Of a DNA stretch of 64,000 nucleotides, positions 4,021 to 38,444 are shown piece after piece. The stretch is from Gaiellales bacterium (GTDB taxonomy: Bacteria > Actinomycetota > Thermoleophilia > Gaiellales > JAICJC01): NCBI GenBank assembly GCA_035473255.1, contig DATIOK010000068.1, forward strand, positions 11,858 to 75,857, read 5' to 3'. The translations under genes were made by a program, and so were the position numbers. The notes below the pieces were generated by a model, which was not told where the DNA came from, ran no database searches, and worked only from the letters and a program-made list of their open reading frames with translations. Numbering within the stretch: position 1 is the stretch's first letter; each line of letters starts with the position of its first letter.

Positions 4021-5066
4021 AGAAGCTGGCCGCCGCCGTGCTGCTGGTCGTGGCGCTGGCCGCGCCCAGCCAGGCGCACGCACTCACCCGCGGCACGCAC
4101 GTGGAGGTGTTCAAGGGCGGCCTCAACCAGGTTGTCGACATGGCGCACGTGCCGAGGTCGACGACGTTGTTCTACACGGAGAAGACGGGCGCGATCCGGG
4201 TGATCGTGGCCCACCGGCTGCTGCCGACGCCGTGCGTCACCCTGGACGTGGTCAGCGACGGCGAGCGCGGCGCGCTCGGCCTGGCGCTCGACCCCGACTA
4301 CCGCACCAACCATTACCTGTACGTGTACTTCACGAAGCGGTCGCCGCTCGAGAACCGGGTGACGCGCTTCACGGTGACCAACAACCGCTGCAGGCATGCC
4401 CATCCCCTGATCACCGGGATCCCGACGGTGGCCGGCTACCACAACGGCGGGCAGCTGTTCTTCCTGGGCAGCAAGCTGTTCGTCACCGTCGGCGAAAACC
4501 ACGATGCCGGGAACGCCCAGAACCTCCACACCCGGCTGGGAAAGGTGCTGCGCTACAACCGCGACGGGTCGATCCCGCGCACCAACCCGATCCTGGGCGG
4601 TCACCGCACCGCGATCTGGTCGTACGGGCACCGCAACGGCTTCGGGCTGACGGCCAAGCCGAACACGAACCTGCTGTACGAGACCGAAAACGGCCCCAAC
4701 TGCGACGACGAGCTGAACCACATCATGAAGGGGCGCAACTACGGCTGGGGTAACGGTTATGTGTGCGGCACCAACGGCGTGGGGCCGCGGCCGGTGGCAC
4801 CGCTGAAGCGCTGGACGCCGACGATCGCCCCGACCGACCCCTGGTGGTACCGGGGTCGCATCAAGCGCATGCGCGGATCGATCTACATGGGCGACTACAA
4901 CACCGGCACGCTGCGCCGGATCACGCTGAACCGGGCGGGCACGGCGGTGAAGTCGATCTCGCTCACCTACCACGCGCCGGCCGGGATCATCGATGTCTCG
5001 TCCGGGCCGGGCCGGTGGCTGTACTTCGCCACCCAGAGCGCGATCTACCGGATCGTCAAGAACTAG
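4017..5066 (+). CDS. PQQ-dependent sugar dehydrogenase (soluble glucose/sorbosone dehydrogenase beta-propeller family), secreted
   Basis: Signal peptide MKKLAAAVLLVVALAAPSQAHA. Family-typical strings are GLALDPDY, HNGGQLFF, GENHDAGNAQN...LGKVLRYNRDGSIP, YGHRNGFGL and ETENGPNCDDELN...GRNYGWG. GTG 4017 overlaps the upstream TGA (GTGA). Confidence 0.8.
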   Translation: MKKLAAAVLLVVALAAPSQAHALTRGTHVEVFKGGLNQVVDMAHVPRSTTLFYTEKTGAIRVIVAHRLLPTPCVTLDVVSDGERGALGLALDPDYRTNHYLYVYFTKRSPLENRVTRFTVTNNRCRHAHPLITGIPTVAGYHNGGQLFFLGSKLFVTVGENHDAGNAQNLHTRLGKVLRYNRDGSIPRTNPILGGHRTAIWSYGHRNGFGLTAKPNTNLLYETENGPNCDDELNHIMKGRNYGWGNGYVCGTNGVGPRPVAPLKRWTPTIAPTDPWWYRGRIKRMRGSIYMGDYNTGTLRRITLNRAGTAVKSISLTYHAPAGIIDVSSGPGRWLYFATQSAIYRIVKN

Positions 5067-5081
5067 GCGCGAAGCGCGCCA
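5067..5081 (+). terminator. weak GC hairpin after the dehydrogenase gene (candidate terminator)
   Basis: ggcgcg-aag-cgcgcc is a 6-bp stem directly after the TAG at 5064..5066. There is no U-tract, so this is only a candidate. Confidence 0.2.
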
Positions 5082-5103
5082 TCTGGCCGCAGGAGCGCGC
5101 CGA

Positions 5104-5176
5104 TGGGGGCGGCTGGGATCGAACCAGCGACCAACCCGTTATGAGCGGGCTGCTCTAACCGCTGAGCTACACCCCC
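5104..5176 (-). tRNA. tRNA-Met (anticodon CAT), elongator-like; CCA not encoded
   Basis: Hand-folded cloverleaf from the reverse complement: acceptor GGGGGTG/CGCCCCC, D arm GCTC-AGCGGTTA-GAGC. The anticodon arm is GCCCG-CTCATAA-CGGGT, the variable loop is TGGTC, and the T arm is GCTGG-TTCGATC-CCAGC, with discriminator A. A lysidine-modified tRNA-Ile2 cannot be excluded from sequence alone. Confidence 0.9.
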
Positions 5177-5276
5177 GAAGGGCGCGTACCATGGTAAACG
5201 GTGACGCGCTTCACATTCCCTTCCAATGGTCGAGGCCGACCGTTCAAACCATCACCGTCGGCGGAACGTAGAACAG

Positions 5277-9578: not shown

Positions 9579-10165
9579 TCGCGACCCTGCGCGGCAAGGT
9601 GCTGGAGCGCGGCCCCGGCCGGATCGTGATCGACGTGGGCGGCGTCGGCTACCTGCTGGCGGCCACCAGCGCCGCGATCCGGATGGCGGTGCCCGACGGC
9701 GAGGAGGTGACCCTGGTCACGCACCTGCACGTGCGCGAGGACGCGCTGATCCTGTTCGGGTTCGCCAGCACCGCCGAACGCGACCTGTTCGAGCTGCTGC
9801 TGGGGGTGTCCGGCGTGGGTCCGAAGGCGGCGCTGGCGATCGTGTCGGGGTACGCACCCGACCAGATCCGCCGCGCCATCGTCACGTCCGACCATGCGCT
9901 GTTCACGAGCATCACCGGCGTCGGCCGAAAGACCGCCGAGCGGGTCGTGATCGACCTCAAGGACAAGGTCGGATCGCTGCCGGCGACCCAGGTGCAGGAT
10001 GCCGCCGACTCACCGCCGGTCGACGACCACACCGCGGCCCGTGATGGGCTGGTGGGCCTCGGCATGTCCGTGGCGGAGGCCGAGGCGGCGCTGCGAAGCA
10101 TCGATGCCGACCTGCCGGTGGGTGAGCGGATCCGCCAGGCGCTGGCCGCTGGGGCGAGCGCATGA
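9575..10165 (+). CDS. ruvA: Holliday junction branch migration protein RuvA
   Basis: MIATLRGKV... OB domain, two HhH motifs ([25 protein letters not shown]) and a C-terminal domain III. ATGA overlap with ruvC. Confidence 0.9.
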
Positions 10166-11187
10166 GCGCGCCGGCCGACCGCATCCCCGATCCGCTGCTG
10201 GCGCCCGGCGAGGAGGAGCTCGACCAGACGCTGCGGCCGCGCCGGTTGTCGGAGTTCGTCGGCCAGGAGGCGGTCAAGGAGCAGCTCTCGATCTTCCTGG
10301 AGGCGGCGCGGGCCCGCAACGAGCCCTGCGAGCACGTGCTGCTGGCGGGGCCGCCCGGCCTCGGCAAGACCTCGCTGGCCGGGATCATCGCGGCCGAGAT
10401 GAGCTCGGCGCTGCGGATCATGTCCGGCCCGGCCATCGACCGCAAGGCCGATATGGCCGCGATCATGACCGCCCTCGAGCCCAACGACGTGCTGTTCATC
10501 GACGAGATCCACCGCCTCAACCGCTCGATCGAGGAGCTGTTGTATCCCGCCATGGAGGACGGCTGCATCGACGTCGTGATCGGCCAGGGCCCGGGTGCGC
10601 ACTCGATCCGCCTCGACCTGGCGCCGTTTACGCTGGTGGGCGCGACCACGCGCACCGGCCTGCTGACGACGCCGCTGCGCGACCGCTTCGGCATCACGCA
10701 CCGGCTCGAGCACTACCTGCCCGAGGAGATCGAGCAGATCGTCCGCCGCTCTGCAGGCATCCTGGCCGTCGAGATCGACGACGGTGGCTGCGGCGAGATC
10801 GCTCGCCGATCGCGCGGCACCCCGCGGGTGGCCAACCGCATCCTGCGCCGCGTCCGCGACTTCGCCCAGGTGCGGCACGACGGCGTGATCAGCCACGAGA
10901 TCGCATCCGAGGCACTGGAGCTGTTCGAGGTGGACGACCTCGGGCTGGAACGGATCGATCGCGAGATCCTGCGCCGCGTGGCAGAGACGTTCTCCGGCGG
11001 CCCGGTGGGCCTGTCCACGCTGGCCGTCGCGATCGGCGAGGAGCCGGACACGCTCGAGGACGTGTACGAGCCCTACCTGCTGCAGATGGGGCTGCTTCAG
11101 CGGACGCCGCGCGGCCGCGTGGTCACGAACGCCGCCTACCGGCACCTCGGGCTGACCGTGCCCGACCGCGATCCGCGGCTGTTCTAG
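10162..11187 (+). CDS. ruvB: Holliday junction branch migration DNA helicase RuvB
   Basis: [12 protein letters not shown], Walker [12 protein letters not shown], Walker [10 protein letters not shown], and the [14 protein letters not shown] winged-helix region. ATGA overlap with ruvA. Confidence 0.95.
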
Positions 11188-11501
11188 ATGGTTGATCGGT
11201 ATCTCTCGCGAGCCTGGCCGCTGCGGTTGGTCAGGGTTCGCGGCGGCCAGGGTGGCTACGGTTGCGAATCGTCGTCTCCGTCCGCGATCTGCGTAATCGC
11301 AGATCGCTCCCGATCGGTGCAAGGCCGTTGGCCTTGCACCTGGTCCTCGGTCGCGCCAATACGACCCGGTATTGACGCTCCCTGCGTCCGTGCGAGACTC
11401 GGTTCTCGCCCGGAAGTGATCTGCGTGATCGCAGATCCCTCCCGACCGGCGCAAGGCGGTGCCTTGCGCCTTGGACCTCACGGAGATAGCGACCAACCAT
11501 C
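11187..11501. repeat. TIR-flanked, hairpin-rich non-coding element (MITE-like) in the ruvB-pip intergenic region
   Basis: The terminal inverted repeats (TIRs) are 19 nt: GATGGTTGATCGGTATCTC at 11187..11205 versus the reverse complement of 11483..11501, GATGGTTGGTCGCTATCTC (17/19). Inside are two direct repeat units of about 62 nt (11286..11348, 11418..11479). Each unit carries hairpins GATCTGCG-N4-CGCAGATC and GG(T/C)GCAAGGC..GCCTTGC(A/G)CC. A third hairpin pairs CCTGGCCGC (11213..11221) with GCGGCCAGG (11243..11251). Confidence 0.45.
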
Positions 11502-11527
11502 CAGCGCCCCGGAGTTATCGTCCAGGG

Positions 11528-12478
11528 ATGCGTGAGCGCTACCCGGCGATCGAGCCGCAGCAGCAGGGAATGCTCGCTGCCGGCAACGGCCACGACGTCT
11601 ACTGGGAGGTGTGCGGCAACCCCGCTGGCAAGCCGGCGCTGGTGCTGCACGGCGGGCCGGGCTCGGGCTGCAAGCCGTGGCACCGCCAGATGTTCGACCC
11701 CGAGCGCTACCGCGTCGTGCTGCTCGACCAGCGCGGCTGCGGGCGCAGCACGCCCAGCGCCGGCACGGATCTGGCGGCGCTCGAGGCCAACACCACACCG
11801 CACTTACTGGACGACATCGAGGCGGTACGTGACCTGCTCGAGATCGACCGCTGGCTGGTGTGGGGCGGGTCGTTCGGGTGTGAGCTGGCGCTGGCCTACG
11901 CCGAGCGGCACCCGGCCCAGGTCAGCGAGCTGGTGCTGTGGGGCATCACCACCGGGCGCCGCAGCGAGGCTGATTGGCTGTTCCGCGGCGGCGTGGGCGT
12001 GATGTTCCCGGAGCAGTGGTACCGGTTCGCCGAGGGGGCGGATGACGACGACCCGGTCGCCGGGTACCGGCGGCTGCTGCACGACCCCGACCCGGCGGTG
12101 CACCGCAAAGCGGCCGAGGACTGGTGCGCATGGGAGTCGGTGACCCCGGACTGGCCGCCCGCCACCGGCATCGCCGAGCGTTTCCGCGATCCGGAGTTCG
12201 CGCTCGGATTCGCACGCCTGGTCACCCACTACGTGCACCACGATCTCTGGATCGAGGACGGCAGTCTGCTGCGCGACGCCGGTCGCCTGGCCCGAGTGCC
12301 CACCACGCTGATCCACGGCCGGTTCGATCTGCAGGCGCCGCTGGCCTCGGCGTGGGATCTGCACCTGGCGCTGCCCGACGCGACGCTGGACGTCGTCGGT
12401 GAGGGCGGCCATGCCGCCGGCGGCACGGAGATGCGCGACCGTCTGATCGCCGCCACCGATCGGCTCGCCCGTGTCTGA
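11528..12478 (+). CDS. pip: prolyl aminopeptidase (proline iminopeptidase), alpha/beta hydrolase
   Basis: YWEVCGNPAGKPALVLHGGPGSG, DQRGCGRS and the nucleophile elbow GGSFGCELALAY are present, with a C-terminal GGH. ATG 11528, in frame with ORF 11459..12478. Confidence 0.85.
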   Translation: MRERYPAIEPQQQGMLAAGNGHDVYWEVCGNPAGKPALVLHGGPGSGCKPWHRQMFDPERYRVVLLDQRGCGRSTPSAGTDLAALEANTTPHLLDDIEAVRDLLEIDRWLVWGGSFGCELALAYAERHPAQVSELVLWGITTGRRSEADWLFRGGVGVMFPEQWYRFAEGADDDDPVAGYRRLLHDPDPAVHRKAAEDWCAWESVTPDWPPATGIAERFRDPEFALGFARLVTHYVHHDLWIEDGSLLRDAGRLARVPTTLIHGRFDLQAPLASAWDLHLALPDATLDVVGEGGHAAGGTEMRDRLIAATDRLARV

Positions 12479-31848: not shown

Positions 31849-31921
31849 GGACCGTCATACCTCTCTGTGCCCAGCATAGCGGGTGCCGGAGGCCGCGTCG
31901 CTGTCCGACCCGCTTCCTAGC

Positions 31922-34300
31922 ATGAGAGCTGTGGATGAACGCGCTCCCCGATGGTTGATCGATCCCTGCTCGGAGCCGGCCGCCCTGGATCTGGCCGGGC
32001 AGCTGGGCGTCAGCCGCACCATGGCCGAGGTGCTGCTGCGCCGCGGCCACGGCGATGCCGCCTCCGCCCGCGCCTTCCTCGAGGCGGACGGCCCGCGTCA
32101 CGACCCGCTGCTGCTGGGTGACATGAGCGCTGGCTGCGACCGCATCCTGGCCGCGATCGAGGGCGGCGAGCGGATCTGCGTGCACGGCGACTACGACGCC
32201 GACGGCATCTGCGCGACGGCGCTGGCCGTCCTGGTGCTGCGATCGCTGGGCGCCGAGGTCGGCTGGCACCTGCCCAGCCGCTTCGAAGAGGGCTACGGCG
32301 TCGGCGCCCAGGCGCTGGAGCGGTTGGCCGGCGAGGGCGTGAAGCTGGTCGTCACGGTCGACTGCGGCATCACGGCCACCGCCGAGGTGGCGAGAGCCCG
32401 CGAGCTCGGCATGGACGTGATCGTGACCGACCACCATCGCCCGGCCGAGCAGCTGCCCGACTGCCTGCGGGTCTGCACCCGGCCGTCGGACTATCCGTTC
32501 CCGGAGCTGTGCGGCACCGGCGTGGTGCTGAAGCTGGCCGAGGCGCTGTACGCGCGCAGCGGACGGGAGCGCGACCAGCTCGACCAGCACCTCGACCTGG
32601 TGGCGCTGGCCACCGTCGCCGACGTGGTGCCGCTGCTCGACGAGAATCGTGGGCTGGTCAGGGCCGGCCTGCGCCGCATGGCGCGCACGGCCAAGCCGGG
32701 GCTGCGTGCGCTGATGGCGGCCGCCCGCATCGACCGGACACGCGTCGCGGCCGGTGATCTCGGCTTCCGGCTCGGCCCTCGCATCAACGCGGCCGGGCGG
32801 CTGGGACACCCCGGCGTCGCGCTTGACCTGCTGCTGACCGATGACGACGATCGTGCCCGCGAGCTGGCCGCGAAGCTCGAGAGCCTGAACCGCCGCCGCC
32901 AGTCGGTCGAGGAGGAGATCCTGGAGCTGGCCGCAGAGCAGGTGGAGGCCCGCGACGCCGCATGGCGCGAGCGGCGTGCCTACGTGCTGGCGTCGCCCGA
33001 TTGGCACGAGGGCGTGATCGGGATCGTGGCGTCGCGCCTGGTCGAGCGCTACGGCCGGCCGGTGGTGCTGATCGCGATCGGCGAGGAGGGCGCCAAGGGG
33101 TCGGGGCGCAGCATCCCCGCCTACGACCTGCACGCCGGGCTGAGCGCCTGTGCCGGGGAGCTGGAGAAGTTCGGCGGCCATCGCGCCGCCGCCGGCCTGT
33201 CGATCGACCCGCTCCGCATCGAACGGTTCGCCGAGCTGCTGGCGGAGCATGCCGCTGCGGCTCTGGACGGGCAGGACCTGGGCCGGGCCGTGCACGTCGA
33301 CGCCGTGGTGGCTCCTTCCGAGCTGTCACTGGAGCTGGCCGATGAGTTGGCCCGCCTCGAACCCTGCGGGCTGGGAAACCCGGGCGTGATGCTGCTGGCA
33401 CCGGCCACGACGCTGACCTCGGTAGAGACGATGAGCGAGGGCAAGCATGTCCGCATGGCGGTCGAGCTGGGCGGCTTCCACTGCCGCGCGGTCGGGTTCG
33501 GGATGGGACGTGACGCGCCCGTGCTGCGCCAGTCGGGACGCCACGACGTGGCCTTCCGGCTCCAGCGCAACCAGTGGAACGGCACCGTCACCCCGCAGAT
33601 GCTCGTGCGTGCGGTGCGCACGCTGGACGCGCAGGCGCCCGCGGCCGACCCCAGGCCGTCGCTCGCCGGCCGCTCAGGCTGCCTGGTCGACGCGCGCGGC
33701 CAGGGCACGCAGATCGCGACCATCGCGCGCCTGCTGGCCGGCGGCGACGACGTGCTGGTGGTGGTCGCCGAGCGCGCCCGCCGCCAGGCGATGCTGACCG
33801 GCGTGCTGCACCCGGCGCGATTCGGCGCGGCCGGCATCGCGCTGGCCGAGTGGGACGAGCTGCCCGGAGCAGCGGACGGGTTCGGCGCGCTGGTGCTGCT
33901 CGATCCGCCCCAGGACGAGCGGCTGCTGCCGCTGGTCGGCGAGCTGGCCGAGCGCGCGGCGGTGCACGTCGTCTGGGGCGGGGCCGAGATCGCCTTTGCA
34001 CGGTCGGTGGCCGCGGAGCGCGAGCCGCTGCGGCCGGCCCTGGCCGCGGTCTGGCGAGCGGCCCGCGACGGCGTCACCCCGCTGCTGCCGGCCCGCACCG
34101 TCGCCGCCTGCCTGCGGGTGCTGGAGGAGCTGGGTCTCGATCCGTCCGCACCCCCGGCGGACCGGGTCGACCTCGAAGCCTCCGCCAGCTTCCGGGCGGC
34201 GCAGGCGCGCCTGCGCGAGTCGCTGGAGTTCCTCGGCCGGCTGGAAAGCGGCGGGCTGACGCTGGACGTTGTGCCGGAGCCGGTGGCCGCCGCTGTCTGA
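31922..34300 (+). CDS. recJ: single-stranded-DNA-specific exonuclease RecJ with a C-terminal extension of about 230 aa
   Basis: DHH motifs are ICVHGDYDADGICA, VTVDCG and VIVTDHH; DHHA1 is GGHRAAAGL. ATG 31922 is preferred, but GTG 31883 is possible. The sequence after about 33608 is Ala/Leu/Arg-rich with no motif I recognise. Confidence 0.8.
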   Translation: MRAVDERAPRWLIDPCSEPAALDLAGQLGVSRTMAEVLLRRGHGDAASARAFLEADGPRHDPLLLGDMSAGCDRILAAIEGGERICVHGDYDADGICATALAVLVLRSLGAEVGWHLPSRFEEGYGVGAQALERLAGEGVKLVVTVDCGITATAEVARARELGMDVIVTDHHRPAEQLPDCLRVCTRPSDYPFPELCGTGVVLKLAEALYARSGRERDQLDQHLDLVALATVADVVPLLDENRGLVRAGLRRMARTAKPGLRALMAAARIDRTRVAAGDLGFRLGPRINAAGRLGHPGVALDLLLTDDDDRARELAAKLESLNRRRQSVEEEILELAAEQVEARDAAWRERRAYVLASPDWHEGVIGIVASRLVERYGRPVVLIAIGEEGAKGSGRSIPAYDLHAGLSACAGELEKFGGHRAAAGLSIDPLRIERFAELLAEHAAAALDGQDLGRAVHVDAVVAPSELSLELADELARLEPCGLGNPGVMLLAPATTLTSVETMSEGKHVRMAVELGGFHCRAVGFGMGRDAPVLRQSGRHDVAFRLQRNQWNGTVTPQMLVRAVRTLDAQAPAADPRPSLAGRSGCLVDARGQGTQIATIARLLAGGDDVLVVVAERARRQAMLTGVLHPARFGAAGIALAEWDELPGAADGFGALVLLDPPQDERLLPLVGELAERAAVHVVWGGAEIAFARSVAAEREPLRPALAAVWRAARDGVTPLLPARTVAACLRVLEELGLDPSAPPADRVDLEASASFRAAQARLRESLEFLGRLESGGLTLDVVPEPVAAAV

Positions 34301-37493: not shown

Positions 37494-37497
37494 CTGC

Positions 37498-37513
37498 CCG
37501 ATCAACCATCTAG
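37498..37513. repeat. 16-nt exact copy of the left terminus of the 11.2-kb element
   Basis: CCGATCAACCATCTAG at 37498..37513 is the exact reverse complement of CTAGATGGTTGATCGG at 11184..11199. It fills the 16-nt gap between two convergent stop codons. Confidence 0.6.
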
Positions 37514-38007
37514 GGCTCCCAGGGCTCGCCGCCGGTGTCCCAGCCCACCAGGCAGTAGGGGCTGAGCAGCTCGGCGACGCGCTCCAGGAAGCGGCGGTCG
37601 CCGTCGCCGAACGCGGCCGGCCGGTCGGAGTCGATGTCGATCTCGGCCACCACCAGCCCGTCGTAGCTGATCGGCACCACGATCTCCGACCTGGTCGATG
37701 CGAAGCAGGCCAGGTAGCGGGAGTCGGCGTTGACGTCGTCCACGATCTCGGTCTGGCCGCTGGCGGCCGCCGACCCGCAGACGCCCTGGCCGATCGGGAT
37801 GCGCACGTGCTCCGTCGCCTCCGGGCCGTTCCACGGCCCCAGCGCCAGCTCCTCGCCCTCGACGAAGTACACGCCCACCCACGAGTAGCTGTCGAAGCCG
37901 TCGTGCAACAGGTCGACCGCGCGGCGCAGGATCTCGTCCGACTCCGTCTCGTCGGCGATCACCTGCTCGATCGCGCGCAGCGACTGCTCGTACGCCTCCC
38001 CGCTCAC
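37510..38007 (-). CDS. GAF domain protein (free methionine-R-sulfoxide reductase-like)
   Basis: GTG at 38007..38005 (VSGEAYEQSL...), a GTGA overlap with the upstream thioesterase. SYSWVGVYFVEG..L.LGPWNG and GQGVCGSAA...IVDDV....YLAC...SEIVVPI match a single-domain GAF/MsrC-like pattern. Confidence 0.75.
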   Translation of the reverse strand: MSGEAYEQSLRAIEQVIADETESDEILRRAVDLLHDGFDSYSWVGVYFVEGEELALGPWNGPEATEHVRIPIGQGVCGSAAASGQTEIVDDVNADSRYLACFASTRSEIVVPISYDGLVVAEIDIDSDRPAAFGDGDRRFLERVAELLSPYCLVGWDTGGEPWEP

Positions 38008-38444
38008 AGCTCCAGCTCCGCCTCGAATCCGGCGATCGCGTCGCGCAGACGCCACTCGACCGGCACCGGCTGGCGTTCGGCCAGATCGACCGAAACCAGC
38101 GTCTGGTTGGCGGCCACCAGCCGGTCGCCGCCGGACACCTTGTAGGCCTCGAACTCCCACGACAGGCTGGTGGTGCCGATCCGCCGCACGCGCACGAACA
38201 CCTCCAGCTCGTCGTCGAAGCTGGCCGGCGCGAGGTACTCGACGTGCTGGGCCCGCATCACGAACTCCGGGTCGCTGGGCTCGCGCACCAGCACCCCCAG
38301 CTCCCGCAGGTACTCGACCCGCGCCCGGTCGAAGTAGGGCATGTAGCGCCCGTAGTAGACGATCCCCTGGGCGTCGGTCTCGTCGAAGCCGACACGCGTG
38401 CGGTACGAGAAACGGAACGGCGGTCGGCGGTCGGTGGCCGGCAT
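38004..38444 (-). CDS. acyl-CoA thioesterase (4HBT/YbgC hot-dog fold)
   Basis: ATG at 38444..38442. RVGFDETDAQGIVYYGRYMPYFDRARVEYLRELG contains the catalytic Asp context of 4HBT thioesterases. 1-nt overlap (TGATG) with the upstream gene. Confidence 0.8.
   Translation of the reverse strand: MPATDRRPPFRFSYRTRVGFDETDAQGIVYYGRYMPYFDRARVEYLRELGVLVREPSDPEFVMRAQHVEYLAPASFDDELEVFVRVRRIGTTSLSWEFEAYKVSGGDRLVAANQTLVSVDLAERQPVPVEWRLRDAIAGFEAELEL

Follow-up and report, generated by a model that had tools for sequence, protein, structure and literature searches.

In the 64,000-nucleotide stretch of Gaiellales DNA analysed here (hereafter the window), the gene ruvB and the alpha/beta-hydrolase gene that follows it, which an earlier note on this DNA called pip, are separated by a 315-bp segment (11187-11501) that carries hairpins between terminal inverted repeats (TIRs), and the question raised by this locus is what such a segment is and how it came to lie directly behind a stop codon. 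The earlier note had left the choice among a MITE (miniature inverted-repeat transposable element), an element like the repetitive extragenic palindromes (REPs), a small RNA (sRNA), and a cluster of terminators. As described below, the segment is very probably a copy of a non-autonomous DNA transposon, that is, a MITE, belonging to a family that is spread through the Gaiellales (class Thermoleophilia). The view that it is a structured repeat and not random intergenic DNA was borne out, since the sequence is multi-copy, is absent at the orthologous site, and shows covariation in 77 aligned units.

The earlier note had proposed a check for insertion polymorphism, and the orthologous site was indeed found empty in relatives. 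Eleven ruvB-pip loci (L108-L118) were reached through RuvB relatives of 85-97% protein identity; all 11 are without the element, and the gap from ruvB to the next gene is 2-39 nt, compared to the window, where pip starts 343 nt past the ruvB stop. In two of these loci (L108 and L109), collinearity with the window extends over 5 kb upstream and 2.0-3.4 kb downstream, at a nucleotide identity of 94%, and the genome MFD08821.bin.2.33, whose ruvB site is empty (L110), carries the family at four other loci (L032, L041, L094, and L105). The closest empty site lies on a metagenome contig (Ga0207983_1005624; L119), in which the last 35 nt of ruvB are exactly as in the window. This empty site (...TTCTAGCGG...) reads ...CTGTTC TAG CGGCCGCGAGTTATCGTCCAGGG ATG, while the filled site of the window reads ...CTGTTC TA, followed by the 315 bp of the element (GATGG...CCATC) and then by CA GCGCCCCGGAGTTATCGTCCAGGG ATG. 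From the T of the stop codon to the base before the pip ATG there are 343 nt in the window and 26 nt in L119, and this difference of 317 bp therefore corresponds to a net gain of the element (315 bp) plus 2 bp. The 26 nt located 3' of the element match the TAG-plus-spacer of L119 at 22 of 26 positions without a gap. On comparison of the two sequences, the insertion target appears to be the TA in the stop codon of ruvB, which lies within a CTAG, with the TA duplicated upon insertion and its right copy later changed to CA. The ruvB TAG stop occupies 11185-11187, such that TA is target DNA and G (11187) is base 1 of the element, which agrees with the start that the earlier note had placed at the last base of this stop codon. 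RuvB is unchanged because the first G of the element rebuilds the TAG stop.

Copy number was examined by an exact scan for the hairpin-1 20-mer GATCTGCGTNATCGCAGATC with one genome per species, and at least 107 stretches were matched, so that the sequence is multi-copy, another point that the earlier note had wanted checked. Among the matches listed, about 100 come from metagenome-assembled genomes (MAGs) labelled as Gaiellales, Thermoleophilia or 'uncultured Actinomycetes', and single MAGs carry many blocks (28 in SMAG_U6862, 14 in SMAG_U11270, 12 in MFD05442.bin.1.101, and 9 in SMAG_U987). About seven matches (in Pelagibius, Clostridia, Thermococci, and others) come without the rest of the unit and are due to chance. 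The hairpin 1 scan of viral contigs returned 0 matches, and none was found in plasmid or phage collections either. At least 90 complete copies delimited by GATGRTTGAT... termini were recognised among the listed loci and the window; these measure 90-382 bp, with a mode of about 255 bp, and their flanking sequences differ from copy to copy. Two of them (L033 and L017), at unrelated loci of another MAG, are 91% identical to the window copy across all 315 bp, and other copies have only part of the modules of the window element in common. Copies of 182-184 bp correspond to the window element less one 132-nt unit register, and copies of 375 bp have three units; overall, the complete copies contain one unit in 67 cases, two in 15, three in 2, and none in 6. 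Using an nhmmer profile of the unit, we found 126 units scoring at least 40 bits, 103 of them within complete copies and, of the 23 others, 22 truncated at the edge of a contig or locus. The units thus keep essentially to TIR-bounded copies and are therefore not free-standing REP-like palindromes. In the literature that we searched, no paper joins Gaiellales and MITEs, and the words Actinobacteria and actinomycete do not occur in a 2024 review of prokaryotic MITEs; the family is one of abundant MITEs in Gaiellales that appears in no source searched here.

The flanks of the 90 copies were then aligned at the element boundaries. Immediately next to the element, A is found at position -1 in 91% of copies and T at position +1 in 84%, while the frequencies at the more distal positions are 60% for T at -2, 61% for A at +2, 68% for C at -3, and 60% for G at +3, beyond which the composition is that of the background. 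TA is present on both sides in 30 of the 90 copies. The resulting family consensus, CTA-element-TAG, reads as the TA-duplication signature of IS630/Tc1-mariner transposition. An effect of the age of copies on the state of their flanks was considered and rejected, as the frequency of the TA/TA state shows no trend with identity to the nearest copy. A preference for CTAG is a property of IS630 itself, and members of the IS427 group (IS5 family) would leave flanks of the same appearance; a search for literature on IS427 and CTAG yielded nothing usable. IS630/Tc1-mariner transposases are known to target TA and to duplicate it, and in vitro transposition of ISY100 occasionally gives products with TA on one side and just A on the opposite side (PMC2170065).

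Within the window, CTAG is strongly depleted, occurring at 14 sites (0.22 per kb), and 7 of the 14 are TAG stops of open reading frames (ORFs) supported by a high G+C content at third codon positions (GC3). Because CTAG is rare in DNA of 70% G+C and half of its occurrences are TAG stops, copies accumulate at the 3' ends of genes. Using a heuristic call (an open frame no shorter than 70 codons and high in GC3), a gene was found to read into the element at 93 of 167 testable ends. Of these 93, the boundary TAG ends 37, the TGA of TIR positions 7-9 ends 11, and TGAs that overlap positions -1 to 5 end 8; the consensus TIR start (TAGATGATTGA), read inward, offers TAG, TGA, and TGA in the three frames. 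There are 19 copies between convergent genes and 9 between divergent genes. The copies show no orientation bias relative to transcription, either between co-directional genes (16 vs 9) or with respect to the genes that read into them (43 vs 37), and this lack of bias argues against an sRNA or a terminator cluster.

As for the window element itself, the ends had been described as 19-nt TIRs with 17 matches, and this is what was found on comparing 11187-11205 with the reverse complement of 11483-11501; the match can be extended to 22 nt at 86%. A degenerate TIR pattern occurs at only two places in the 64 kb, namely the two element ends, against a shuffle expectation of 0.00. The two units, which had been estimated by eye at about 62 nt and four-fifths identity, are direct repeats whose starts are 132 nt apart, and they are 88% identical over 43 nt (11286-11328 vs 11418-11460) and 84% identical over 64 nt by BLAST. 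Hairpin 1, noted earlier in both units, is a palindrome (GATCTGCG-N4-CGCAGATC) that occurs exactly twice in the window, while shuffled sequences are expected to contain 0.11 and had two or more in 0 of 100 cases. The stems of hairpin 2 are perfect (11 bp in unit 1 and 10 bp in unit 2) and differ by the compensatory exchange of T:A to C:G that the earlier note had pointed out as T-to-C in one arm and A-to-G in the other. The 9-bp stem reported between 11213-11221 and 11243-11251 is present as well and sits within an 18-nt inverted repeat of 83%. The module between the units recurs in other copies with the compensatory variant CAATAT/ATATTG. Folding of the 315 nt gave z = -9.5 on the plus strand and -11.9 on the minus strand relative to dinucleotide shuffles, and the predicted fold consists of at least seven local hairpins in a chain closed by pairing of the TIRs. 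The Rfam scan that had been suggested gave no relevant match at E <= 10 over 10800-11900 and none at the gathering score in 10 other loci, and the element region of the window contains 0 sigma-70-type promoter-like sites and 0 intrinsic-terminator-like sites, i.e., no stem followed by a T-run.

To what extent pairing is maintained in the family was examined in an alignment of 77 distinct units (1813 cells), with 500 shuffles as the control. The two-hairpin structure was paired in 88.7% of cells, compared to 30-37% when the partners were slid by 1-3 columns. Double-sided changes were found at 16 of 26 pairs, involving 174 cells, and the covariation score was 0.198 vs 0.070 in the shuffles; neither result was reached by any of the 500 shuffles. 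The outer part of hairpin 1 alternates among GAGC/GCTC, TCGC/GCGA, GACC/GGTC, and GAGG/CCTC, and units free of the constraint imposed by the search pattern carry the compensated hairpin-1 variants GACCTGCG/CGCAGGTC and AATCTGCG/CGCAGATT. In hairpin 2 the switches affect at least four positions, and three loci (L024, L061, and L103) carry GGTGTCCAGCG/CGCTGGACACC in place of the whole stem. The compensatory pair in hairpin 2 of the window is therefore one case of a family-wide pattern, and the covariation check proposed for aligned copies thus came out in favour of the conserved structure. One-sided changes are rare (9 G:T and 29 A:C among the 1813 cells), and many of the exchanges are G:C to C:G transversion pairs, for which no wobble intermediate is possible. 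Together with the lack of orientation bias, the rarity of one-sided changes fits a constraint on both strands, correction of palindromes or swapping of modules, and an RNA acting from one strand fits less well. A strand-specific RNA function was considered and set aside, as there is no orientation bias and the wobble asymmetry (9 G:T vs 29 A:C) is weak and not independent. The source of the covariation may be selection on RNA, selection on DNA hairpins, or templated correction of palindromes.

Conservation within the copies is uneven. In 11 copies that share element positions 1-224, five of them from one MAG, identity was 0.87 in the TIR, 0.60 in the loop and 3' arm of hairpin A, 0.99 in hairpin 1, 0.96 in the linker and hairpin 2, and 0.92-0.95 in the rest, where the value for hairpin 1 is inflated by ascertainment and the contrast between the variable segment and everything else is not. 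This variable segment, compared between the window (11222-11250) and 40 other copies, has a different sequence in nearly all copies, including copies that share a MAG, and yet its length is kept at 28-35 nt and it is G/T-rich. The possibility that it serves as a guide or derives from the flank was rejected, given that alignment to the flank of its own copy had a mean of 6.71 and alignment to other flanks a mean of 6.80 (permutation p = 0.7). Only two points could lead somewhere new, namely the stronger conservation of the interior than of the TIRs, and this variable segment.

Measured against the general properties of bacterial MITEs (PMC2229807), the element is small and non-coding, has TIRs of 19-24 bp and dispersed copies, and shows filled and empty sites and an apparent TA target duplication. 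The A+T-richness that is typical of most, not all, bacterial MITEs is absent from this G+C-rich element and is a non-defining property. We infer that a TA-duplicating DDE transposase, of the IS630/Tc1-mariner type or of the IS427 group of the IS5 family, would bind the TIRs and move the element in trans. The interior would consist of G+C-rich hairpins that are independent of one another and follow each other in a chain of swappable modules, and the unit (hairpin 1, linker, and hairpin 2), present 1-3 times, would change in number by recombination between units. The hairpins would be kept by compensatory changes and selected at the level of the element, most likely because a stable stack of stem-loops behind a stop may, whichever way it is oriented, do no harm to the upstream mRNA or be of slight use to it; alternatively, they may be kept up for a role in transposition.

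Several observations weigh against a TA-duplicating MITE of this kind and have to be set beside the evidence for it. All copies were found through an exact match to hairpin 1, and almost all come from MAGs. In the flanks, the proximal A(-1) and T(+1) are at 84-91% while the distal T(-2) and A(+2) are at about 60%, an asymmetry not expected from a TA duplication that simply decays, and a class of flanks of the form GA...TC is represented by 6 copies vs about 2 expected, with an inverted and not a direct relation between the two sides. At the empty site, L119 stays collinear with the window for no more than 35 nt on the upstream side and 353 nt on the downstream side, and a 2-bp duplication is indistinguishable from one of 3 or 4 bp because the junctions are CTA/G...C/TAG and CTAG is palindromic. 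The interior (92-99%) is better conserved than the TIRs (87%), which is unusual if mobility needs only the ends. Finally, the 870 kb examined yielded no autonomous element whose TIRs match, so that the transposase family given above is a candidate; a search of the same 870 kb for leftover strict TIR ends and for inverted repeats of at least 17 nt spaced 650-3200 nt apart also gave no autonomous partner. Candidates for such a partner were rejected. The two copies in L064 enclose an ORF that by eye, with no family search, resembles a glutamyl-tRNA synthetase and not a transposase, and L104 and L055 had no obvious transposase among their translated ORFs, judged by eye with no family search run. 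The L064 copies (2003-2322 and 4852-5233) are related, inverted, and 2.5 kb apart, a composite-transposon geometry that is probably a coincidence.

Some of these points would be explained if the hairpin cassette, and not the TIRs, were the selected payload, making the whole a mobile 3'-end module that places stem-loop arrays behind stops. We consider this unlikely. If it were true, the arrays would stabilise or terminate transcripts or would be bound by a protein of the host or by a transposase, movement would need the internal hairpins, and one could account for an interior more conserved than the TIRs, for the variable 30-nt segment (60%), and for flanks unlike those of a plain TA duplication. 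A different matter is whether the compensatory changes reflect selection at all, since they might arise mechanically, by intrastrand template switching, quasi-palindrome correction or module swapping, with the hairpins as mere passengers of the MITE. The 174 double-changed cells next to so few one-sided ones, the many G:C to C:G pairs that cannot have passed through a wobble, the stems swapped whole (e.g., GGTGTCCAGCG/CGCTGGACACC in the three loci named above), and the clear shuffling of modules among copies are all what such a process would produce. Nonetheless, template switching leaves unexplained an interior identity of 92-99% beside a 30-nt segment of 60%, as well as the hairpin nature of every module in every subfamily, and we regard a purely mechanical origin as possible and somewhat doubtful.

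The other two explanations concern the nature of the element as a whole. It might be a mosaic of palindromes like the REPs and the bacterial interspersed mosaic elements (BIMEs), spread or maintained by a single-strand transposase of the RAYT/HUH (IS200/IS605-like) kind or by the host, with the terminal repeats merely another pair of palindromes. An interior of G+C-rich hairpin modules in mosaic arrangement and variable number, a conservation that is higher inside than at the ends, a preference for gene 3' ends, often between convergent genes, and pairing kept by double changes with few wobbles, as suits a hairpin in DNA, would all be at home in such a mosaic. However, no lone hairpin units were found (TIR-bounded copies hold 103, and an edge cuts 22 of the 23 others), the two units are direct repeats, unlike the inverted REPINs, the element was gained as a single block with a 2-bp duplication at TA, and termini and flanks are sharp in 90 copies, which together make this explanation highly improbable. 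It is scarcely conceivable that the segment is a locus-specific cis-regulatory RNA, an sRNA gene or a terminator cluster serving ruvB or pip. The predicted folding is very stable, the site lies between two co-directional genes, and the units lie on the transcribed strand, and yet the element is lacking in the eleven RuvB-derived ruvB-pip loci and in L119, the family is carried by about 100 unrelated loci among the matches listed, Rfam gave no match (at E <= 10, and in the 10 other loci) and the scans no promoter-like or terminator-like site, and the copies are not biased in orientation to the flanking genes (16 vs 9 and 43 vs 37). The empty state of the orthologous sites, the number of copies, Rfam, and the promoter and terminator scans thus refuted a function as a locus-specific RNA. 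Among the options of the earlier note, it is the MITE, which it had listed first, that stands; the REP-like option falls because the units keep to TIR-bounded elements, and the sRNA and terminator-cluster options fall for lack of an Rfam match, a promoter-like or terminator-like site, and an orientation bias.

When compared with known systems, the MITE family of Gaiellales resembles RUP and other MITEs mobilised by IS630-type elements in mechanism and BOX elements in architecture; it is a member of neither, having no sequence in common with them and belonging to a different phylum. Like the RUP/IS630-mobilised MITEs, it is a small non-coding element with TIRs, inserted at TA, with many intergenic copies and with stops in its frames (PMC2229807). 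Those elements rely for movement on a transposase that acts in trans and duplicates TA (PMC2229807, PMC2170065), a step that we only infer for the Gaiellales family. RUP, the repeat unit of pneumococcus, is 107 bp long and A+T-rich, and its TIRs match those of IS630-Spn1, whereas the Gaiellales element has 315 bp, 65% G+C, at least six interior hairpins, and asymmetric flank conservation, and no partner insertion sequence was found in 870 kb. BOX elements are built as boxA-boxB(n)-boxC, with end modules that are fixed and internal modules that vary in number, and their transcripts fold strongly. The Gaiellales element is likewise modular, with fixed ends, variable internal modules, and strong folding of the transcript; it differs in that BOX shows no sequence similarity to it, belongs to a different phylum, and is without clear TIRs or TA duplication, while here a two-hairpin unit is repeated in a 132-nt register and the whole is TIR-bounded. 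BOX elements of Streptococcus pneumoniae are mentioned in PMC10969869. The Correia/NEMIS elements of Neisseria are also TIR-bounded, TA-flanked, gene-adjacent MITEs with a folding transcript and size variants made by internal deletion (PMC2229807), but they fold mainly through pairing of their long TIRs and have a site for integration host factor, in contrast to the independent internal hairpins with family-wide covariation seen here. REPs and BIMEs share with the Gaiellales element the character of G+C-rich extragenic palindromes in mosaics after gene 3' ends, according to PMC2817692, and differ in their single or alternating orientation, in being without a TIR boundary or target duplication, and in their link to RAYT. 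A minisatellite MITE of Porphyromonas gingivalis (PMC4596501) is also a bacterial MITE with a variable number of interior repeats, in its case short tandem repeats, compared to 62-nt double-hairpin units spaced by other modules in Gaiellales.

Taken as a MITE, the element is of a known type and is ordinary selfish DNA, with an unusually well-conserved modular hairpin chain inside, which raises the question of why the hairpin interior outranks the ends in conservation. In Gaiellales, a soil lineage that is mostly uncultured, the family breaks MAG assemblies, creates spurious ORFs (e.g., 11188-11535), and supplies the stop codon of many genes, and it could be used as a strain-level insertion marker. 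It is also a natural example of how an element seeking TA or CTAG in a genome of 70% G+C is funnelled onto stop codons.

Table 1. Features of the ruvB-pip locus and of the element between the two genes (positions in the window).
Feature	Position	Strand	Remarks
ruvB	10162..11187	+	341 aa; 97% identical to P0001 (source name: Holliday junction DNA helicase RuvB)
Putative left copy of duplicated target TA	11185..11186		within CTAG 11184-11187; basis: L119 empty site ctgttcTAGcgg and family flanks
Left TIR, GATGGTTGATCGGTATCTC	11187..11205	+	consensus GATGRTTGAT... common to 90 complete copies
Hairpin A, internal	11208..11256	+	inverted repeat and predicted fold; loop and 3' arm (~11222-11250) are the hypervariable segment of the family
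Small hairpin, 8 bp	11258..11281	+	predicted minimum free energy (MFE) structure; retained in 11 aligned copies
Repeat unit 1	11284..11340	+	hairpin 1 at 11284-11307 (loop TAAT), linker, hairpin 2 at 11316-11340; nhmmer E = 4.9e-19
Inter-unit module	11341..11414	+	hairpins CAATAC/GTATTG (11357-11374) and GCGAGA/TCTCGC (11388-11413); predicted MFE fold
Repeat unit 2	11415..11470	+	hairpin 1 at 11415-11440 (loop TGAT), hairpin 2 at 11448-11470; nhmmer E = 1.6e-16
Right TIR, reverse complement GATGGTTGGTCGCTATCTC	11483..11501	-	inverted-repeat search and degenerate TIR scan
Putative right copy of target duplication, now CA (one T>C from TA)	11502..11503		basis: comparison with L119
Alpha/beta-hydrolase gene (pip of the earlier note)	11528..12478	+	orthologues with PF00561 Abhydrolase_1 directly 3' of ruvB

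The coordinates of the features are collected in Table 1, in which the ATG of pip at 11528 is a small correction to the earlier note. An exact-sequence look-up of the window RuvB returned no record, and its orthologous ruvB genes stop at the identical codon position, as TAA, TAG or TGA. The G+C content of the element is 64.8% vs 69.9% for the window. The only ORF that spans the element, 11188-11535, was rejected as protein-coding because its G+C content is flat across codon positions (0.65/0.66/0.64, compared to 0.73/0.45/0.95 in ruvB). The stop codons of GC3-supported ORFs in the window are TGA in 39 cases, TAG in 17, and TAA in 4. GATC is very frequent in the window (655 sites, 10.2 per kb), and an enrichment of GATC in the element was discarded as a lead, being only 2-fold above a genome that is already GATC-rich.

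With regard to the loci collected from other genomes, at least 14 MAG contigs start or end inside a copy; those that end there are L001, L002, L013, L015, L020, L026, and L090, and those that start there are L029, L034, L063, L066, L095, L098, and L101. Since many contigs break inside copies, the family is a frequent breakpoint of short-read assembly and the copy numbers are therefore underestimated. One of these, L063 (DATAHZ010000804.1, labelled Kofleriaceae), is a 3.9-kb contig binned as a myxobacterium that carries a typical Gaiellales-type copy, and it is likely mis-binned because this copy is nearly identical to copies of SMAG_U6862. The copy with the divergent hairpin 2 (GGTGTCCAGCG...) in L061 comes from a genome labelled Solirubrobacterales. 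The six copies with GA...TC flanks (L018, L036, L044, L045, L048, and L085) come from different subfamilies; in four copies of this class the TGA of the left flank is the stop of the upstream ORF, while in L044 and L045 the stop is a TAG at -7, inside a CTAG located 4 nt ahead of the GA (CTAGCTGA, followed directly by GATGG). Upstream of the empty site in L119, an unrelated ORF is fused to the last nine codons of ruvB, and L119 diverges downstream too, as the product either of chimeric assembly or of a rearrangement at the locus.

Two further places in the window resemble parts of the element. On the minus strand, 37497-37513 (CTAGATGGTTGATCGG) is identical to the CTA flank plus the first 13 nt of the left TIR and lies directly 3' of the TAG stop of the minus-strand ORF 37510-38160, in the spacer, some 16 nt long, that precedes a convergent ORF; from its sequence, it resembles the solo TIR left behind by a copy that is otherwise largely deleted. 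The stretch 31950-31983 matches the left end of a family copy (TIR and the start of hairpin A) at 31 of 36 positions (BLAST E = 0.004) and overlaps the start of ORF 31883-34300, which is RecJ-like by eye. Its TIR-like GATGG contains an in-frame ATG, and the stretch may be a remnant that now provides the 5' end or the start codon of this ORF.

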